Positions 32,859-41,140 of a DNA stretch of 64,000 nt are shown one piece after another. The notes beneath the pieces were generated by a model. It searched no databases. It had not been told where the DNA came from and worked only from the letters and a program-made list of their open reading frames with translations. This stretch comes from an uncultured Flavobacteriales bacterium (GTDB taxonomy: Bacteria; Bacteroidota; Bacteroidia; Flavobacteriales_D; JABDKJ01): positions 16,394 to 80,393 of the forward strand of contig CAZSQZ010000009.1 in NCBI GenBank assembly GCA_964609215.1, written 5' to 3'. Each line of letters opens with the position of its first letter. The first letter of the stretch is position 1. The position numbers and the translations under genes were made by a program.

Positions 32859-32935
32859 TCAATAGGGGTGGAATCGAACCACCGACCTTCTCGTTTATGC
32901 GAGATGCTCTAACCACTTGTGTTACTATATAAAAG
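32859..32935 (-). pseudogene. tRNA-like element (5'-disrupted), with a 6-nt anticodon-like loop
   Basis: Minus-strand reading gives a canonical D-loop/3' D-stem (AGTGGTTAGAGCA), variable AGGTC and T-arm GGTGG-TTCGATT-CCACC. The 5' D-stem and acceptor partner are absent. The anticodon-position hairpin TCTCG/CATAAA/CGAGA has a 6-nt loop. Confidence 0.4.
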
Positions 32936-32959
32936 TATAGCGCGTTTTCCAATTACGCC

Positions 32960-33050
32960 ACTGTGCCACAAGCACAGACAGGACTCGAACCTGTATAACA
33001 TGGGATTTATTTTCAGCAAATCCAAGTACTGAATTCATCATCAATATAAT
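32960..33050 (-). pseudogene. tRNA-like fragment (T-arm plus extended hairpins)
   Basis: Minus-strand ACAGG-TTCGAGT-CCTGT T-arm followed by a CTGTGC/GCACAG hairpin. An upstream GGATTT...AAATCC stem has a 9-nt loop. No acceptor pairing. Confidence 0.3.
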
Positions 33051-33194: not shown

Positions 33195-33270
33195 GTCTCT
33201 TGTCGGATTCGAACCGACACTCTCATAATTAAACGAGCAGATTGGCTCTAAATTCGCTTCCCTACTTTAT
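33195..33270 (-). pseudogene. tRNA-like fragment (T-arm GTCGG-TTCGAAT-CCGAC), followed by a hairpin
   Basis: Canonical T-arm on the minus strand, with no matching acceptor stem. Immediately downstream (minus sense) is a CGAGACA/TGTCTCG hairpin at 33160-33183. Confidence 0.3.
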
Positions 33271-33427
33271 TAAATATATTTCGGTGCTTCTGCAAACTCT
33301 ATCCTTCCGCAGGCGAACTACGACCGGCATCATCCAATCACTACATGGTCTGAATCAACTTTTACCATAGCACTTCCTTTTATGCTAAAGAGACAATATT
33401 TAAAGAACTTCTATTAGCTTTTGCTAA

Positions 33428-33452: not shown

Positions 33453-33577
33453 TGTTTCATTTATGGTACAAATATTTCAACAGTAATACGCAATATATTT
33501 GCGTAATTAATATTGATTTTTGAATCTTAATTTAGAAAGTCTGTAATGAGACTTCTTAGCGGAAATACAATGAAAAG

Positions 33578-34270
33578 TTAACGGGCAAAATCCGTATACT
33601 TTATTTTGGTTATTACCCTTTCCCCTTTTCTATTGAATAATTCCGTTGTAGGCCTCATAATTAAGCCTTCAGCTATATAATCCGTATTCTCTGCAATGGT
33701 GGATTTGAAACCTTCTTTGACGAAAGCAATAGCTTCTTCAAGTTTCCAAATTCCCATGATGGGTACAATCCCAATATTTAATTTATTGGCGATGTCTTCA
33801 TTGGCTTCTCTATTCAACCAGAAATCTCCAATTTTTACATCGAACAAAATGAAGTCGGTCCGATCAGGAAGATAGTTTCCACCTCTTTGAATTTTTTTGC
33901 CATAACCTTCTCCATATAAGCAAACATTTGTTGCATCTGGAAAATGTTTTTGCATTTTTTCATTAGTGAATGTATCCTGAAGAACGGAAACTAAATGCGC
34001 AGGAATTTGTGCATTATCCGTTTTTCCTCCGAAACGAACTTTTATTCCATCCCACATGATTCTGATATTTGTTCCGTCAATTTTTTCGGTACAAATCCAG
34101 TTGATGTTCTTCAATAATTCGAATTCCGGTTTTGCCCAAGTTCCTTCTAGTAAGGTCTTGTGTTTATTTTTAGGATCTCTAAAAAACACCGTTTGAATTT
34201 TTTGGTATTGTTTCATTTCACTCATATTTAAATTATCCATTCGTAGGAATAGAAAGATTCGAACTCTCAT
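33578..34270 (-). CDS. minimal ATP-dependent RNA/DNA ligase-like nucleotidyltransferase (KxDG adenylyltransferase domain only)
   Basis: Motif I TEKIDGTN (KxDG), motif III-like FILFDV, motif IV AEGLIMRP (EGhhhK/R) and motif V ITKIKYTDF. The first ~15 codons of the listed ORF overlap the tRNA-Arg gene, so the true start is probably an internal Met (MSEMKQ/MKQYQ near 34216-34225). The mature protein is about 215 aa, with no OB domain. Confidence 0.55.
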   Translation of the reverse strand: MRVRIFLFLRMDNLNMSEMKQYQKIQTVFFRDPKNKHKTLLEGTWAKPEFELLKNINWICTEKIDGTNIRIMWDGIKVRFGGKTDNAQIPAHLVSVLQDTFTNEKMQKHFPDATNVCLYGEGYGKKIQRGGNYLPDRTDFILFDVKIGDFWLNREANEDIANKLNIGIVPIMGIWKLEEAIAFVKEGFKSTIAENTDYIAEGLIMRPTTELFNRKGERVITKIKYTDFAR

Positions 34271-34315
34271 CCTCTGGTTCGTAGCCAGATATTTTCTCCC
34301 TTAAACTATATTCCT
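34244..34315 (-). tRNA. tRNA-Arg (anticodon ACG)
   Basis: Folded by eye. Perfect 7-bp acceptor AGGAATA/TATTCCT. Anticodon stem TCTGG/CCAGA with loop CTACGAA. T-arm GAGAG-TTCGAAT-CTTTC with one G-U. D-loop contains GG. Discriminator A. No encoded CCA. Confidence 0.6.
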
Positions 34316-34320
34316 ATTTG

Positions 34321-34393
34321 TGGAACAGAAAGGACTCGAACCTTTATCTTCCCGTCTTCAGCGGGTCGCATTGACCATCTTTGCTACTATTCC
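34321..34393 (-). tRNA. tRNA-Phe (anticodon GAA)
   Basis: 7-bp acceptor GGAATAG/CTGTTCC with one G-U. 3-bp D stem with a GG loop. Anticodon loop CTGAAGA. Variable AGATA. T-arm AAAGG-TTCGAGT-CCTTT. Confidence 0.6.
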
Positions 34394-34395
34394 AT

Positions 34396-34468
34396 TGGGT
34401 GTCTTCGAGGCTCGAACTCTGTTCTCTTCAGTCACAATGAAGTGTTTTACCGCATAAACTAAAGACAC
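34396..34468 (-). tRNA. tRNA-His (anticodon GTG)
   Basis: Anticodon stem CTTCA/TGAAG with loop TTGTGAC. The acceptor can be drawn with G-1 and C73 followed by CCA. D stem GTTT/AAAC with a GG loop. The T-stem is weak (about 3 bp around TTCGAGC). It is separated from the Phe gene by 2 nt. Confidence 0.5.
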
Positions 34469-34474
34469 CATAAG

Positions 34475-34548
34475 TACCCCTCCTAGGATTCGAACCTAGA
34501 CTGTAAGGATTTTAAGTCCTATGCCTCTGCCAATTGGGCCAGAGGGGC
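34475..34548 (-). tRNA. atypical tRNA with Leu anticodon TAA (type-I architecture, short variable loop)
   Basis: Acceptor GCCCCTC/GAGGGGT (G1-U72). Perfect T-arm CTAGG-TTCGAAT-CCTAG. Anticodon loop CTTAAAA on a 4-bp stem. 5-nt variable loop ACAGT. 3-bp D stem with D-loop AATTGGCA. Discriminator A. Confidence 0.5.
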
Positions 34549-34686
34549 AATTAAACTTGTGCTCTGTAGGGGAGAACCCCTATTTTCTGATAGAACTTAG
34601 CGAAGCGATCTCAACGAATCCATTGGAGATCATTCCCCTTGAGTCAAAGTCAGATGTACCAGCGGTTCTACTAGCAGAGCATTAGT
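34549..34686 (-). ncRNA. unassigned structured element between tRNA genes
   Basis: The minus-strand transcript would have a 7-bp terminal helix (TGCTCTG ... CAGAGCA) and internal hairpins GATCTC[13 nt]GAGATC and TAGGGG-TTCT-CCCCTA. It does not fold as a canonical tRNA by eye. Confidence 0.25.
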
Positions 34687-34759
34687 GCGGAGAGAGAGAC
34701 TCGAACTCTCAAATACCTGATTCTAAGTCAGGCGCCTTTGCCAATTTGGCCATCTCCGC
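34686..34759 (-). tRNA. atypical tRNA with Leu anticodon TAG (type-I architecture), paralog of the TAA gene
   Basis: Perfect 7-bp acceptor GCGGAGA/TCTCCGC. Anticodon stem CCTGA/TCAGG with loop CTTAGAA. Variable TATTT. T-arm GAGAG-TTCGAGT-CTCTC. 3-bp D stem with D-loop AAATTGGCAAA. Discriminator A. Confidence 0.55.
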
Positions 34760-34765
34760 ATTTGT

Positions 34766-34834
34766 TGCTCTATCAGGGTTCGAACCTGAAATCCAAGAAT
34801 CAAAATCTTGTGTGTTGCCATTACACTATAGAGC
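34766..34834 (-). tRNA. tRNA-Gln (anticodon TTG)
   Basis: Perfect acceptor GCTCTAT/ATAGAGC. D stem GTGT/ACAC with loop AATGGCA. Anticodon stem CAAGA/TCTTG with loop TTTTGAT. T-arm CAGG-TTCGAAC-CCTG. Discriminator A. Confidence 0.6.
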
Positions 34835-34879
34835 TATTTTGTTTGGGAAGTAGGATTATCTCACGTTTGAATTAATCCT

Positions 34880-34960
34880 AAATGATGTTCGTGAATGCAA
34901 AGCATTTCGAACCTACGACCTCCCGCGTCCAAGGCAGGTAAACAACCACCGTTATCTTCC
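34880..34960 (-). pseudogene. tRNA-like remnant carrying a T-loop motif (GGTTCGAAA), unresolved fold
   Basis: TTCGAA T-loop-like motif without a complementary T-stem. A possible acceptor-like pairing exists, GGGAGGT with ACTTCCC about 100 nt apart. The region also contains the hairpin ATCTTCCAAGAT followed by TTTTTTT. Confidence 0.25.
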
Positions 34961-35028
34961 AAGATTTTTTTGCTTAACATTCTCATGACTTCAGGAGACA
35001 GCTGAATTCAGTTGAACATTAAGCAAAG

Positions 35029-35111
35029 TGAAAGCGGCAGGACTCGAACCTGCATGCTCAGAAGAGACCTGATTTACAGTCAGGCGAGCCAACCAATTGC
35101 TCAACACTTCC
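35029..35111 (-). tRNA. tRNA-Tyr (anticodon GTA), type II
   Basis: Acceptor GGAAGTG/CGCTTTC with two G-U pairs. Canonical D-arm GAGC-AATTGGTTG-GCTC. Anticodon stem CCTGA/TCAGG with loop CTGTAAA. 13-14 nt variable arm with internal stem. T-arm GCAGG-TTCGAGT-CCTGC. Discriminator A. Confidence 0.65.
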
Positions 35112-35120
35112 ATATTTTAG

Positions 35121-35192
35121 AGACAAGGATGAGAGTCGAACTCATAAAAACAGTTTTGCAGACTGCTGCCTTAGCCATTCGGCCACCTTGTC
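35121..35192 (-). tRNA. tRNA-Cys (anticodon GCA)
   Basis: Perfect acceptor GACAAGG/CCTTGTC. D-arm GCC-GAATGGCTAA-GGC. Anticodon stem GCAGT/ACTGT (one G-U) with loop CTGCAAA. 4-nt variable. T-arm ATGAG-TTCGACT-CTCAT. Discriminator U, which is the Cys identity base. Confidence 0.65.
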
Positions 35193-35309: not shown

Positions 35310-35360
35310 TCCATTTGCGGAAAGAGTGGGAGTCGAACCCACACGAGTCGTTATCTCCGA
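35310..35360 (-). pseudogene. tRNA-like fragment (T-arm GTGGG-TTCGACT-CCCAC)
   Basis: Canonical T-arm on the minus strand followed by TCTTTCC. Only a minihelix-scale pairing partner (GGAGATA) lies upstream. Confidence 0.25.
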
Positions 35361-35375
35361 ACGGTTTTAACTCCA

Positions 35376-35408
35376 TATAGCGAACTCAATTGGTGTCGTT
35401 GAGTTCGC
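35376..35408. other. perfect 11-bp inverted repeat (AGCGAACTCAA ... TTGAGTTCGCT)
   Basis: Seen directly: AGCGAACTCAATTGGTGTCGTTGAGTTCGCT. It lies between the tRNA-like remnants and the terminator hairpin at 35470. Confidence 0.5.
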
Positions 35409-35467: not shown

Positions 35468-35500
35468 AAAAAAAAAGCACCTCACGAGGAGGTGCTTTTT
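35468..35500. terminator. bidirectional rho-independent terminator hairpin
   Basis: AAAAAAAAGCACCTC-ACGAG-GAGGTGCTTTTT. Perfect 7-bp GC-rich stem flanked by an A-run and a T-run. Confidence 0.6.
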
Positions 35501-35924
35501 AAATGTCTTGATCTATTTATTTCAATCTATTTTAAATGCTTCTCCCTATAGAATTTTTTGAATTCCGGATAGAATAATCGCAGCGAACTACATCCTTGTT
35601 CTTGGACTAAGTGGGCTTGGATTATATGTTCTAATGCAATTTTCATTGTGCTTTGTTTTGTGCGCTGCAAATATTTAAACTCTTTTTCAATTATACAAGA
35701 AAAAATTAATTTAAGTTACTGATAATCAAATGTTTACGATAAATTTTTGGACATAGAAATCCCGACTCGTATTTCTCGAATTTTCTTTTTTTTCGCAATT
35801 GCCTGTCTCTCAATTGATTCATTTTTTCTATTCTATTTCAACCTTATTTTAATTTATTCATTAATTATTTTTTTCAGTGTTTTTCAATTTCATTTATTCA
35901 AGCTCTTGTTATAGAGTTTGGGAC

Positions 35925-35960
35925 ATAAAAAAAGCCCGAACATTTTTAGGTTTCGGGCTT
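35925..35960 (-). terminator. rho-independent terminator of the minus-strand nucleotidyltransferase/RtcB operon
   Basis: GCCCGAA...TTCGGGC hairpin. On the minus strand it is followed by TTTTTTTATGTCCC. Confidence 0.55.
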
Positions 35961-36136: not shown

Positions 36137-37207
36137 TTATTTTGGTTGTCTAACCCGAGCATAAAATTCAGTTCTTAAGTTTCTGAGAAGCAAGTCTATT
36201 TGGTTTTTATCAGGTGAATCTTTTAAATTGGAGAACTTAAATAATAAATCAAGTTCCTGCCTTAATTTTTCTGCTTCTTTTAGAAGATATTCATACTCGA
36301 ATTCCCCATTTTTAATTGAAAGTAAAAAATCTCGATCTTTTCTTTTTACATTAATTCTTCCTTCTAGTGCTATTTCTTTGGCCATCTTGAGAAGCCTGAA
36401 TGTATGCATAATGTTTTTCGAGTCATAGTTTTTTCCATGTTTCACAGTTGTATTGTATCTCTCTTCATTTCTATTTTCCACCCAAGCCCAATATTCTTTA
36501 TGTCTCTTACAATAGGTGGAATAGCCATCTAGATTGAAAAAGAGCATGGTAAGGGCCTTTTCTCCTTTGGGTATTGAACTTAATGCAATTTCATTGGCAT
36601 TAGAGCTATTTATAATTCCTTTGTGTTGAATTGATTTGCTGTGAAAAAGACTATAACAGTCTTTCATGTTGGCTAATTTAACAAGACCACAATCTTCTTG
36701 TCGAATATTATTGTCTTTTAAGTATCGGCTAAGAGGAACTGATTTATTATGATCTAAAACAAAGCAAAAATCAAGAACTCCTTTTTTGACTTTTGACATT
36801 GGATTAACAATTTTCTTCTCAAGTCCTCTAGCTTTTTTAATCTGAGTAAATACATAGTTAGAAAATGTTTCCTTGCAACGCTTGCTCAAGAATAGATCTG
36901 TTTTCACCTTACCAAAAATGGGGTCTTTGTGCAATATGCAACCCTCCGGAACAGACAGGAGCTCAATTATATTGGGGTTATTATTAAGGCATAATTTCAG
37001 GAACTTTCTGATTTCATAATAAACAATGTCATTGCTTGGATTATTAATTTGTTCTGTATAATCGAAAGAATACAATTGCTTTTCTGGAAGAATATATACC
37101 CCTCTAATATCCGTGTCCGAATTTGGAGTAGCTAAACCATAAGCTCTACTTCCACTGATGCACTCAAAAATGATGTGACCTGATTCTTTTAATTCCTCAA
37201 GAGTCAT
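36137..37207 (-). CDS. Pol-beta superfamily nucleotidyltransferase (predicted RNA/nucleotide-modifying NTase)
   Basis: N-terminal hG[GS]x9-13Dh[DE] motif ISGSRAYGLATPNSDTDIRGV. 356 aa. Stop overlaps the start of the upstream paralog, so the two are operonic. Confidence 0.55.
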   Translation of the reverse strand: MTLEELKESGHIIFECISGSRAYGLATPNSDTDIRGVYILPEKQLYSFDYTEQINNPSNDIVYYEIRKFLKLCLNNNPNIIELLSVPEGCILHKDPIFGKVKTDLFLSKRCKETFSNYVFTQIKKARGLEKKIVNPMSKVKKGVLDFCFVLDHNKSVPLSRYLKDNNIRQEDCGLVKLANMKDCYSLFHSKSIQHKGIINSSNANEIALSSIPKGEKALTMLFFNLDGYSTYCKRHKEYWAWVENRNEERYNTTVKHGKNYDSKNIMHTFRLLKMAKEIALEGRINVKRKDRDFLLSIKNGEFEYEYLLKEAEKLRQELDLLFKFSNLKDSPDKNQIDLLLRNLRTEFYARVRQPK

Positions 37208-37950
37208 GTCAGTTCATTTATAAAAAACTCATTGAATGCAGTTGGATTCAATCTTACTTTTTTCAATGAATCCTTTTTCGATTCGTTTTCAAGTACAATT
37301 GTTTTAGCCATATTTAGCAAGTCTGTATTTATAGCAACAATTCCAGCTTCAGCAGTCGAAGCCTTTAACTGAACTAAATCGAGTAAAAGTCTTGATTCAT
37401 GATCTGAAATCAATTCAAAAAGCTCGGTAAATGAAACTGGAGGGATGGTCTTATTTTTTAAAATCCAATTGGCACATAATGCAGTTCTTATGGCGTAGAA
37501 GAATTCTTTAATAGTAAATTTTCCTTCTTTCAATTTCTCATGAAATCCTTTGTTCATACTGTGAAAATGATAGAATCCAGAAACAGGATTGAAATTTTCT
37601 TTTGCAAGAGTTCGCATATTTTCGAGTGTTTCCCTGTGAGAAAAATAGACGATTGGAGAAAATAGCCAACCTAGAAACGAAGCATTGGACTTGGCCAAAA
37701 GTTTGGAGGCTTTTTGCAAATCCCATCCAACTCCATCCAAGTCTTCTTCCGTCATAAATTGAATTGTATCATCTTCTTCCCATAGACTTAAGTATTTACG
37801 AAAGTCCTTTTTGTAAACGAAACGAACGTCATAATCTGAATCGGGAGACTCAAAACCCCAGGCCCTACTTCCAGATTCAACAGCAAAAAGAATATCTACT
37901 TCCTTCGTTTTTTCTATTTCTTTGAGTTTATTTATTATTAAGTCTTTCAT
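37204..37950 (-). CDS. Pol-beta superfamily nucleotidyltransferase, paralog of the downstream gene
   Basis: ESGSRAWGFESPDSDYDVRFVY motif (GS...DxD). 248 aa. 4-nt overlap with the next gene. Confidence 0.55.
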   Translation of the reverse strand: MKDLIINKLKEIEKTKEVDILFAVESGSRAWGFESPDSDYDVRFVYKKDFRKYLSLWEEDDTIQFMTEEDLDGVGWDLQKASKLLAKSNASFLGWLFSPIVYFSHRETLENMRTLAKENFNPVSGFYHFHSMNKGFHEKLKEGKFTIKEFFYAIRTALCANWILKNKTIPPVSFTELFELISDHESRLLLDLVQLKASTAEAGIVAINTDLLNMAKTIVLENESKKDSLKKVRLNPTAFNEFFINELT

Positions 37951-37961
37951 TTTTTTTCAAT

Positions 37962-40047
<2,086 letters not shown>

Positions 40048-40090
40048 TCAAAGGTGTAATCTATGTGCGCAATAATTTTGCGTAGATAAT

Positions 40091-41140
40091 TTGAAAGCTT
40101 TAATTTTGTATATGGCTCAAAATAAAAACGCTCTGATAAGATATAAAACCATTGATAAATGTCTTCAAAATCAATATAGAAAATGGACTTTGGAGGATTT
40201 AATTGATGCTTGTTCAGATGCATTGAACGAATATGAAGGACGAGATATAAATGTAAGCAAACGAACTGTTCAGCTTGATATTCAGTTAATGAGGAGTGAT
40301 AAACTTGGATATAATGCACCCATTATTGCTTATGAACGCAAATATTATCGTTATGAAGATGAGAATTATTCAATCACGAATATTCCTCTTACAGAAAATG
40401 ATATGAGTGTATTGACAGAGACGGTTGAAATGTTGAAACAGTTCAAAGATTTTTCATTGTTTTCTGAGTTGGGTGGTATTATTCATCGTCTAGAGGACAA
40501 AATTCACACGGAGAAAACTCAAAACTCTTCAGTCATTCATTTAGAAAAGAATGAGAATCTAAAAGGCTTGGAGCATTTAGATTTGCTTTATCAAGCGATT
40601 CTAAAAAAGATTTGTTTGACATTGGATTATCAATCCTTCAAGGCTAAGTCATCGAGTAGAATCGTTTTTCATCCATTTATTTTGAAAGAGTTTAACAATC
40701 GCTGGTTCGTGGTTGGAAGAAAAGGGAAGAGTAGTCCCATCATTACTTTTGCCTTAGATAGAATAATAGCTATTGACTATAATTTAGACATTCCATATTT
40801 AAACGAAGACTTTGATAGAGATGAGTATTACAAAAACACAATTGGTGTAACCGTACTTAACGAAACGCAGCTGAGAGAAGTTGATTTGAAAATTGACAAA
40901 TACAATGCACCTTATGTTTTGACCAAGCCCTTTCACCAATCGCAAGAGGTAATAGAAACAGATAGATATGGAAACGTAACGGTCAGAATCAAAGTTCATT
41001 TGAATTTCGAATTGGAACGTCTCATACTAGGTTTTGGAGATTCAATTCAAGTTCTTAAACCTAGACAATTGAAGAATAGAATAAGAAGGAAATTAAAAAA
41101 TGCGATTGAGAATTATGAGAAGGCTAAGGAACCTCATTAA
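40091..41140 (+). CDS. HTH plus WYL-domain transcriptional regulator, divergent from rtcB
   Basis: N-terminal winged-HTH-like segment (NALIRYKTIDKCL) and central WYL-like segment (NRWFVVGRKGKSSPIITFALDRI). 349 aa. The likely start is MAQNKN near 40112. Confidence 0.55.
   Translation: MKALILYMAQNKNALIRYKTIDKCLQNQYRKWTLEDLIDACSDALNEYEGRDINVSKRTVQLDIQLMRSDKLGYNAPIIAYERKYYRYEDENYSITNIPLTENDMSVLTETVEMLKQFKDFSLFSELGGIIHRLEDKIHTEKTQNSSVIHLEKNENLKGLEHLDLLYQAILKKICLTLDYQSFKAKSSSRIVFHPFILKEFNNRWFVVGRKGKSSPIITFALDRIIAIDYNLDIPYLNEDFDRDEYYKNTIGVTVLNETQLREVDLKIDKYNAPYVLTKPFHQSQEVIETDRYGNVTVRIKVHLNFELERLILGFGDSIQVLKPRQLKNRIRRKLKNAIENYEKAKEPH

Follow-up and report, generated by a model that had tools for sequence, protein, structure and literature searches.

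RNA repair counteracts tRNA-cutting toxins and phage-defense nucleases. To our knowledge, RlaP is the least understood of the RNA-repair enzymes, its first biochemistry dating from December 2025 and covering single canonical enzymes. The family owes its name to its linkage to RNA ligases. In Pseudomonas fluorescens and P. aeruginosa, the gene for RlaP lies between rtcB and rtcA (Carruthers, Fatma & Huang, bioRxiv, December 2025; PMC12776372). The two canonical Pseudomonas enzymes extend the 3'-OH of RNA by one or two nucleoside monophosphates but leave DNA and protein unmodified, and they prefer Mn2+ and show little specificity for the nucleoside triphosphate (NTP) used. They favor the 5' half of a cleaved tRNA over the acceptor-bearing 3' half and can restore aminoacylation to a tRNA that lacks one anticodon-loop nucleotide (PMC12776372), and the crystal structure of the P. 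fluorescens enzyme has an N-terminal nucleotidyltransferase (NTase) domain and a C-terminal helical domain. RtcB/Band-7/b7a-tRNA repair systems have been predicted (Burroughs & Aravind, NAR 2016, as relayed in bioRxiv 10.1101/312249 and PMC7824862), and in Anabaena a long tRNA array is co-regulated with rtcB, with the array, rtcB and slipin/Band-7 responding jointly to translational stress (PMC8421152, PMC10272220). Here we describe two adjacent RlaP genes, rlaPS (short form) and rlaPL (long form), in a 64,000-nucleotide (nt) stretch of an uncultured Flavobacteriales bacterium (assembly GCA_964609215.1, contig CAZSQZ010000009.1, positions 16,394 to 80,393), hereafter the window.

We consider it likely that these genes encode two different template-independent RNA NTases of the RlaP family (PF10127), translationally coupled within an operon of the order rtcB, a gene for a protein of 225 amino acids (aa), rlaPS and rlaPL. 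This reading is carried by the match to the family, the intact active sites, the structure of the operon, the conservation of the pair and a natural fusion, while what the long form does, how the two enzymes share the work and in which order the steps follow are inferred. Both proteins score well above the 23-bit gathering score of PF10127 (RlaP, ‘RNA repair pathway DNA polymerase beta family’), the first of the family checks that had been proposed in an earlier annotation of the same DNA made from its letters and open reading frames (ORFs), hereafter the sequence-only reading. RlaPS covers the model over its full length (206.7 bits, E 6.1e-61, profile positions 1-247 of 249), and RlaPL matches it with its N-terminal core of 118 residues only (90.3 bits, E 2.1e-25, residues 9-126). 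The motif GSRA(W/Y)G...D(T/Y)D, which the sequence-only reading had pointed out in adjacent genes of 248 and 356 aa, was found in both ORFs, as G27-S-R-A-W-G32 and D39-Y-D41 in RlaPS and as G19-S-R-A-Y-G24 and D31-T-D33 in RlaPL. The catalytic set G27, S28, D39, D41 and D72 of RlaPS is invariant among 20 homologs, and the set G19, S20, D31, D33 and D60 of RlaPL is at least 90% conserved among 66 diverse homologs with identities down to 33%. The full Pol-beta set (G-S, DxD and a third Asp) is kept in both, and therefore neither protein is a pseudo-enzyme; the regulatory pseudo-enzyme pair that had been brought up for checking was ruled out by these conserved carboxylates.

The same reading had also named AbiEii/MenT toxins and CCA-adding enzymes as possible relatives, and neither membership held. 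AbiEii/MenT (PF08843) was matched by neither protein at E <= 0.01 in Pfam, no PADLOC model matched either of them, and the head domain of CCA-adding enzymes and poly(A) polymerases was not matched at E <= 0.01 in Pfam or NCBIfam. It is very improbable that the two proteins are defense or toxin NTases, be it of the MenT/AbiEii kind, of an MNT-HEPN module or as a signal synthase resembling HalB of the Hailong system. RlaPS alone gives a weak match to the NCBIfam equivalog of MntA, at 26.3 bits against a cut-off of 60 bits, and the HEPN-like bundle of RlaPL has no Rx4-6H motif (as in the HEPN RNases of MNT-HEPN, type VII toxin-antitoxin, systems) that is kept throughout its own family; its Rx6H-like stretch is not retained by NrdC.11 of phage T4 in the profile alignment. 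No defense model of PADLOC matched any of the seven island proteins scanned, hence there is no recognizable Hailong partner (the membrane effector HalA) among them, and the genomic context consists of RNA ligases, Pnkp and an exonuclease. Aminoglycoside or lincosamide NTases are an explanation that we regard as scarcely credible: matches to such enzymes do occur but reflect the common Pol-beta fold at 9-12% identity, antibiotic-resistance NTase families in Pfam and NCBIfam were not matched, and the linkage to RNA ligases is conserved.

Searching the PDB by sequence, with each protein alone and with the RlaPS profile, returned no relative; marginal matches of RlaPL to gp120 (E ~1e-3) concern unrelated viral glycoproteins and were treated as spurious. 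An earlier AlphaFold2 model of RlaPL, made with 20 close homologs (predicted local distance difference test, pLDDT, 75), gave nothing when compared with the PDB by Foldseek. The model made with a 66-sequence alignment including distant representatives (pLDDT 94.9; predicted template-modeling score 0.83) matches NTase-plus-helical-domain enzymes in structure comparison, and it comprises an NTase core, an extra beta-rich insert at about residues 144-224 and a C-terminal helical bundle.

The family alignments of RlaPS and RlaPL match each other in hhalign with a probability of 96-97.7% (E 2.7e-9 to 1.5e-12) and an identity of 31-32% over 79-83 columns, confined to the N-terminal NTase core, and the two proteins belong to different PHROG families (Table 1). 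Judged by these alignments, they are ancient paralogs that represent distinct RlaP subfamilies and not a recent duplication. The term ‘tandem paralogous’ in the sequence-only reading was thus right as to the paralogy, which is real in the NTase core, and not as to a recent origin. A C-terminal K-x3-[H/Y]-x2-R motif looks common to both when compared by eye (K264/H268/R271 in RlaPL, K148/Y152/R155 in RlaPS).

The long form makes up a populous subfamily, with 615 representatives at 50% clustering (E <= 1e-30). In phages it was found in 302 records, among them Lak megaphages, Tenacibaculum phage PTm1 and Vequintavirinae of Klebsiella and Escherichia. The short form occurs in other phage groups, with 80 records that come for the most part from Pseudomonas jumbo phages. 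Phages PTm1 and KB57 encode the long form without a short partner; the gene that precedes the long RlaP of PTm1 was checked for being an unrecognized short RlaP, with a negative outcome. Single short-form or canonical RlaPs occur in rtcB operons of Pseudomonas and in a Hen1/Pnkp operon of Enterococcus. As a side observation, three long-form homologs of about 700 aa (P0386, P0436, P0439) match LAGLIDADG homing endonucleases, one of them also weakly Hint, and some long-form matches are split into two stretches with a break near query residue 263, which suggests inteins within the long-form enzyme.

The coordinates of the pair and of the features around it are collected in Table 1. The start of the 225-aa gene is most likely the ATG one base past the stop codon of rtcB, the gap between this gene and rlaPS measures 11 nt, and rlaPS and rlaPL overlap by 4 nt (ATGA, positions 37204-37207). 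The hairpin at the end of the operon has a folding energy of -13.3 kcal/mol (z = -3.7), and none of 200 shuffled sequences folds equally well; a simple terminator scan missed it because its loop limit was 8 nt. The four genes are tightly packed on one strand with a terminator at the end and, by this arrangement, form a single compact operon. The overlap, the shared minus-strand unit with the hypothetical gene and rtcB, the terminator and the nearby tRNA array had all been described in the sequence-only reading and were confirmed here by the packing, by the hairpin with its U7 run and by the tRNA predictions.

Table 1. Features of the RlaP locus in the window (positions count from the first letter of the window).
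Feature	Position	Strand	Matches and remarks
RlaPS, canonical-length RlaP NTase, 248 aa	37204..37950	-	PF10127, phrog_14344
RlaPL, long-form RlaP NTase, T4 NrdC.11-like, 356 aa	36137..37207	-	PF10127, phrog_388
RtcB RNA ligase, 461 aa	38641..40026	-	PF01139 (E 1.6e-35); first gene of the operon
225-aa protein without family assignment	37962..38639	-	variable slot between rtcB and the RlaP pair
Intrinsic terminator of the rtcB-RlaP operon	35925..35960	-	10-bp stem, 11-nt loop, then U7
tRNA array: Cys, Tyr, Gln, Leu(TAG), Leu(TAA), His, Phe, Arg	34243..35192	-	ARAGORN and Rfam, 8 tRNAs each
Minimal ATP-dependent RNA ligase (Rnl), Rnl2-like adenylyltransferase domain only, 212 aa	33578..34216	-	PF09414 (E 1.3e-17), phrog_548
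tRNA-like non-coding elements upstream of Band-7	32859..33047, also ~33200-33290	-	weak Rfam matches, low-threshold ARAGORN
SPFH/Band-7 protein, 366 aa	31451..32551	-	PF01145 (E 3e-21)
WYL-WCX transcription regulator, divergent from rtcB	40112..41140	+	PF13280, PF25583; start from JGI gene call
Palindrome CGCAAT-AATTT-TGCG, candidate operator	40068..40082	.	85-nt divergent gap between rtcB and the WYL gene
Palindrome, copy 2	33489..33503	.	between the Rnl gene and the tRNA-like/Band-7 unit, upstream of the tRNA-like elements and of Band-7

Conservation of the pairing was assessed in 25 loci with a long-form relative, which came from a search restricted to a single genome for each species. In 20 of these 25 loci both genes share a strand, with RlaPS placed upstream of RlaPL. 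The paired loci belong to Flavobacteriales (Kordia, Flavobacterium, Fluviicola, Crocinitomicaceae), Chitinophagales, Sphingobacteriales, Saprospiraceae and Cytophagales (Hymenobacteraceae), and a Hymenobacter plasmid bears the RlaPS-RlaPL pair too. Both ORFs overlap by 4-59 nt in 15 paired loci, with the identical ATGA in nine, and one gene is inserted between them in four Kordia genomes. There is also a natural fusion of 619 aa (P0353), in which a short form (39% identical to RlaPS) is followed by a long form (40% identical to RlaPL). This fusion was read on four contigs, and the three places given here (L028-L030) stem from different sequencing runs; it is flanked by genes for PRiA4_ORF3 and YjbR and has no ligase in its vicinity. 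The conserved order, the overlaps and the fusion speak in the classic manner for a functional, possibly physical, partnership. RlaPS and RlaPL probably constitute a functional unit, the substrate or nucleotide preferences of which would be complementary. In one Saprospiraceae metagenome-assembled genome (MAG; L014, 8131-10011), a 626-aa ORF begins with an Old-Yellow-Enzyme-type flavin oxidoreductase (PF00724) and ends with the short RlaP, representing either a true fusion or a lost stop codon.

The partnership might go as far as an obligate heteromer with one catalytic subunit and a second subunit that serves mainly in tRNA recognition or regulation. This is possible but in our view doubtful. 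The conserved translational coupling of rlaPS and rlaPL and the natural fusion, which joins both proteins in unchanged order, would suit such a complex, as would the difference between the C-terminal halves, RlaPL carrying its beta-rich insert and only the N-terminal cores being alignable. The complete and strongly conserved catalytic sets of both proteins argue against it, and since each subfamily also occurs alone, in phages and in other bacteria, an obligate heteromer is not required.

The RNA-repair island of Bacteroidota varies between loci, and the RlaP pair is its most constant element. RtcB lies within 10 kilobases (kb) of the pair in 12 of the 25 loci, where it belongs to two clades with two positions: RtcBs of the first clade are 71-78% identical to the RtcB of the window and lie upstream of the pair, whereas those of the second clade (Chitinophagales and Sphingobacteriales) are 27-31% identical and lie downstream. 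The motifs GNHF, HHGSRG and HGAGR of the window RtcB align to RtcB of P. horikoshii. In Kordia aestuariivivens (L018), an annotated T4 Rnl1-type ligase takes the position of RtcB, thus the pair stays and the ligase is displaced; the gene beside this ligase has a homolog in L004 that is a Pnkp. The islands of Kordia (L001-L004, L018) are much larger and include Pnkp, T4 Rnl1/Rnl2-type ligases, an RNase T-like exonuclease, DUF434/DUF5616, an R2K ATP-grasp protein, a leucine-rich repeat protein and, directly after RlaPL, a 455-aa protein with a short-chain-dehydrogenase domain. Linkage to rtcB or another RNA ligase is conserved across Bacteroidota, so the case that would have overturned the sequence-only reading, an unrelated family such as aminoglycoside NTases with no kept rtcB linkage, does not apply.

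The 225-aa gene is a variable accessory outside the conserved core. It was found in three of the 25 related loci, and its product has no match in Pfam, NCBIfam, PADLOC or PHROG. The 107 homologs that were found form a small unannotated family, those with names being from Flavobacteriia and the rest metagenomic. Elsewhere genes unrelated to it take this slot, namely those for a DinB-like protein (L009), an uncharacterized 587-aa protein (L007) and an uncharacterized 193-aa protein (L022). The flanks of the island consist of housekeeping genes (a pseudouridine synthase-family gene, diacylglycerol kinase, transglycosylase, UvrA and an S-methyltransferase), therefore the island is chromosomal, and a phage origin was ruled out on these grounds.

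The tRNA array is separated from the operon by a second strong hairpin just before it (35472-35500; a perfect 12-bp stem and a T-run), and a 39-codon ORF (MKIALEHIIQAHLVQEQGCSS..., 35527-35646, minus strand) was observed between this hairpin and the operon terminator. Within the runs of the array the tRNA genes are spaced by 3-8 nt. Both tRNA-Leu genes are 75 nt long, without the long variable arm expected for bacterial tRNA-Leu, and degenerate tRNA remnants occupy the gaps and the stretch up to position 35391, for example Pro(TGG) at 34891-34961 and Leu(GAG) at 35319-35391, both seen only at lowered ARAGORN thresholds. The Rnl gene starts 27 nt after tRNA-Arg and is thus probably co-transcribed with the array; its motif EKIDGTN aligns to the KxDGxN motif of T4 Rnl2. 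In the comparison set, 14 of the 25 loci have a tRNA array beside the pair, with 6-24 genes per array.

This linkage could also be read to mean that the NTases act on the array tRNAs at their 3' acceptor end, in maturation or repair, instead of mending breaks in the anticodon loop. We hold that to be improbable. The array tRNA genes do not encode CCA, pair and arrays occur together in those 14 loci, and Klebsiella phage KB57 has a CCA-adding enzyme 3 kb from its long-form RlaP. Against this stand the lack of a match to CCA-adding families in our searches and the properties of the characterized RlaPs, which are little NTP-specific, stop at one or two nt and prefer the 5' tRNA half (PMC12776372), as well as four loci in which the pair is present without any tRNA array (L014, L019, L028, L035).

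Band-7 is encoded in eight of the 25 loci, in five of them directly or nearly directly upstream of the pair (L009-L012 and L024; Chitinophagales and Sphingobacteriales). In the window, the elements upstream of the Band-7 gene are probably of the ‘b7a-tRNA’ type; their Rfam scores lie below the gathering thresholds (28.6 of 69 bits for YrlA, 24.5 of 29 bits for tRNA), and ARAGORN reports them only at lowered thresholds. In L008, an 87-nt ‘tRNA-Lys’ was called just upstream of Band-7.

A WYL-WCX regulator gene adjoins the island in divergent orientation in 12 of the 25 loci, and L004 has a fragment of one at its edge. The window contains two copies, and no more, of the palindrome CGCAA-N5-TTGCG, where the expected number is 0.13. 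Counted over ten related loci (L001, L002, L003, L004, L006, L007, L008, L018, L020 and L021, from nine Flavobacteriales and one MAG labeled Chitinophaga), there are 17 sites, all intergenic, with the consensus ctaCGCAAAATAATTGCGya. The sites mostly head units of the island, among them sites upstream of rtcB and, in L020 and L021, sites 90-105 nt upstream of RlaPS. This common palindrome at the heads of the units suggests one regulon under the WYL protein; for the operon, control would probably come from the divergent WYL regulator, with a palindrome of 15-19 bp as candidate operator. On a megaplasmid of Enterococcus raffinosus (L036), two WYL regulators are divergent from an operon with a Hen1-like methyltransferase, a Pnkp-like metallophosphoesterase and a single short RlaP, an arrangement that indicates WYL control of RlaP-containing repair operons outside Bacteroidota as well.

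The role of the pair is most likely to refill nucleotides lost to ‘trimming’ ribotoxins ahead of ligation, judging by the activity of the canonical Pseudomonas RlaPs (PMC12776372). In the proposed sequence of events, a ribotoxin would cut the tRNA and trim at least one nucleotide off the 5' fragment, the RlaP enzymes would restore one or two nucleotides at its 3'-OH end, and a ligase of the island, either RtcB or the ATP-dependent Rnl whose gene follows the tRNA array, would reseal the tRNA. The tRNA array and the Band-7/tRNA-like unit would be part of the same rescue island, maybe as replacement or decoy tRNAs and as scaffold, respectively. The proposal of the sequence-only reading that Pol-beta NTases work here with RtcB on tRNA 3' ends is thereby supported by PF10127 membership, by the ligase linkage and by the biochemistry of Pseudomonas RlaP.

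Several observations weigh against this interpretation. RlaP products end in a 3'-OH, whereas RtcB needs a 3'-phosphate (3'-P) or a 2',3'-cyclic phosphate, a point raised by the authors of the Pseudomonas study themselves, and the biochemistry covers the canonical type only, with two Pseudomonas enzymes (PMC12776372). The Rnl of the window could use the 3'-OH ends left by RlaP; this ligase was, however, not found by tblastn in any of the other 25 loci, among which T4 Rnl1- or Rnl2-type ligases occur instead, and no 5'-kinase was recognized among the genes scanned in the window island. RlaPL stands alone in four of the 25 loci, with one further locus being cut by a contig end, each subfamily is found alone in many phages, and single canonical RlaPs serve operons of Pseudomonas and Enterococcus.

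A further-reaching proposal, which we put forward with considerable reserve and rate as rather unlikely, is that the short and long RlaP make up a unit dedicated to restoring nucleotides, either as two enzymes or as a heteromer, and that this unit is the constant core of a WYL-controlled ‘tRNA rescue regulon’ of Bacteroidota. In that case the two RlaPs would split the work by tRNA end or by nucleotide, or one of them would prepare an end that RtcB can use, and such work-sharing would address the mismatch between the 3'-OH made by RlaP and the 3'-P used by RtcB. The co-regulated tRNA arrays would then be a source of replacement or decoy tRNAs.

Publications already cover the RlaP family with its ligase linkage and predicted role, and for the canonical type also the activity. 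The sequence-only reading is in essence the published one; the locus reveals no new kind of system. In the literature covered, which does not extend to the 2016 paper that named RlaP, we found neither the pairing of short and long forms nor the fusion, the ligase displacement or the common palindrome, parts of which may be known already. These features mean that a large bacterial group maintains two different RlaPs together, sometimes fused (this locus and 20 related ones), that the pair is constant while the neighboring ligase is swapped, and that one candidate operator is common to the pair, RtcB and Band-7 units. The locus thereby offers a concrete system for the function of the long form (T4 NrdC.11-type) and for the question of how an RlaP product becomes an RtcB substrate.

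Compared with the described systems, the locus shares individual traits with each of them. In Anabaena the genes are dispersed and one repressor, the ribbon-helix-helix protein TrcR, controls them, whereas here they are clustered in an island with a WYL regulator; an NTase is mentioned in neither of the two papers (PMC8421152, PMC10272220). NrdC.11, the RlaP member of phage T4, aligns to the RlaPL profile over its full length (294 columns, probability 99.1%, E 8e-19) at about 20% identity and does not align to the RlaPS profile. Common to NrdC.11 and RlaPL are the NTase core and a C-terminal D-x-K-x3-H-x2-R motif, and NrdC.11 is solo in T4, with no short partner. The predicted b7a-tRNA systems, as far as they are relayed in the two later papers, resemble our locus in bringing together RtcB, Band-7, candidate tRNA-like elements beside Band-7 (Rfam matches below the gathering thresholds here) and RlaP in one neighborhood. 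With Pseudomonas RlaP the locus shares the Pfam family, the position of an NTase within an rtcB operon and an active site of three aspartates, and RlaPS is of the length class of the Pfam model with end-to-end coverage, a likeness drawn via this model. It differs from the Pseudomonas operons by two RlaPs of different subfamilies instead of one, by the absence of rtcA, and by a WYL regulator in place of the sigma-54 activator RtcR, and its island adds a tRNA array, Band-7 and an ATP-dependent ligase.

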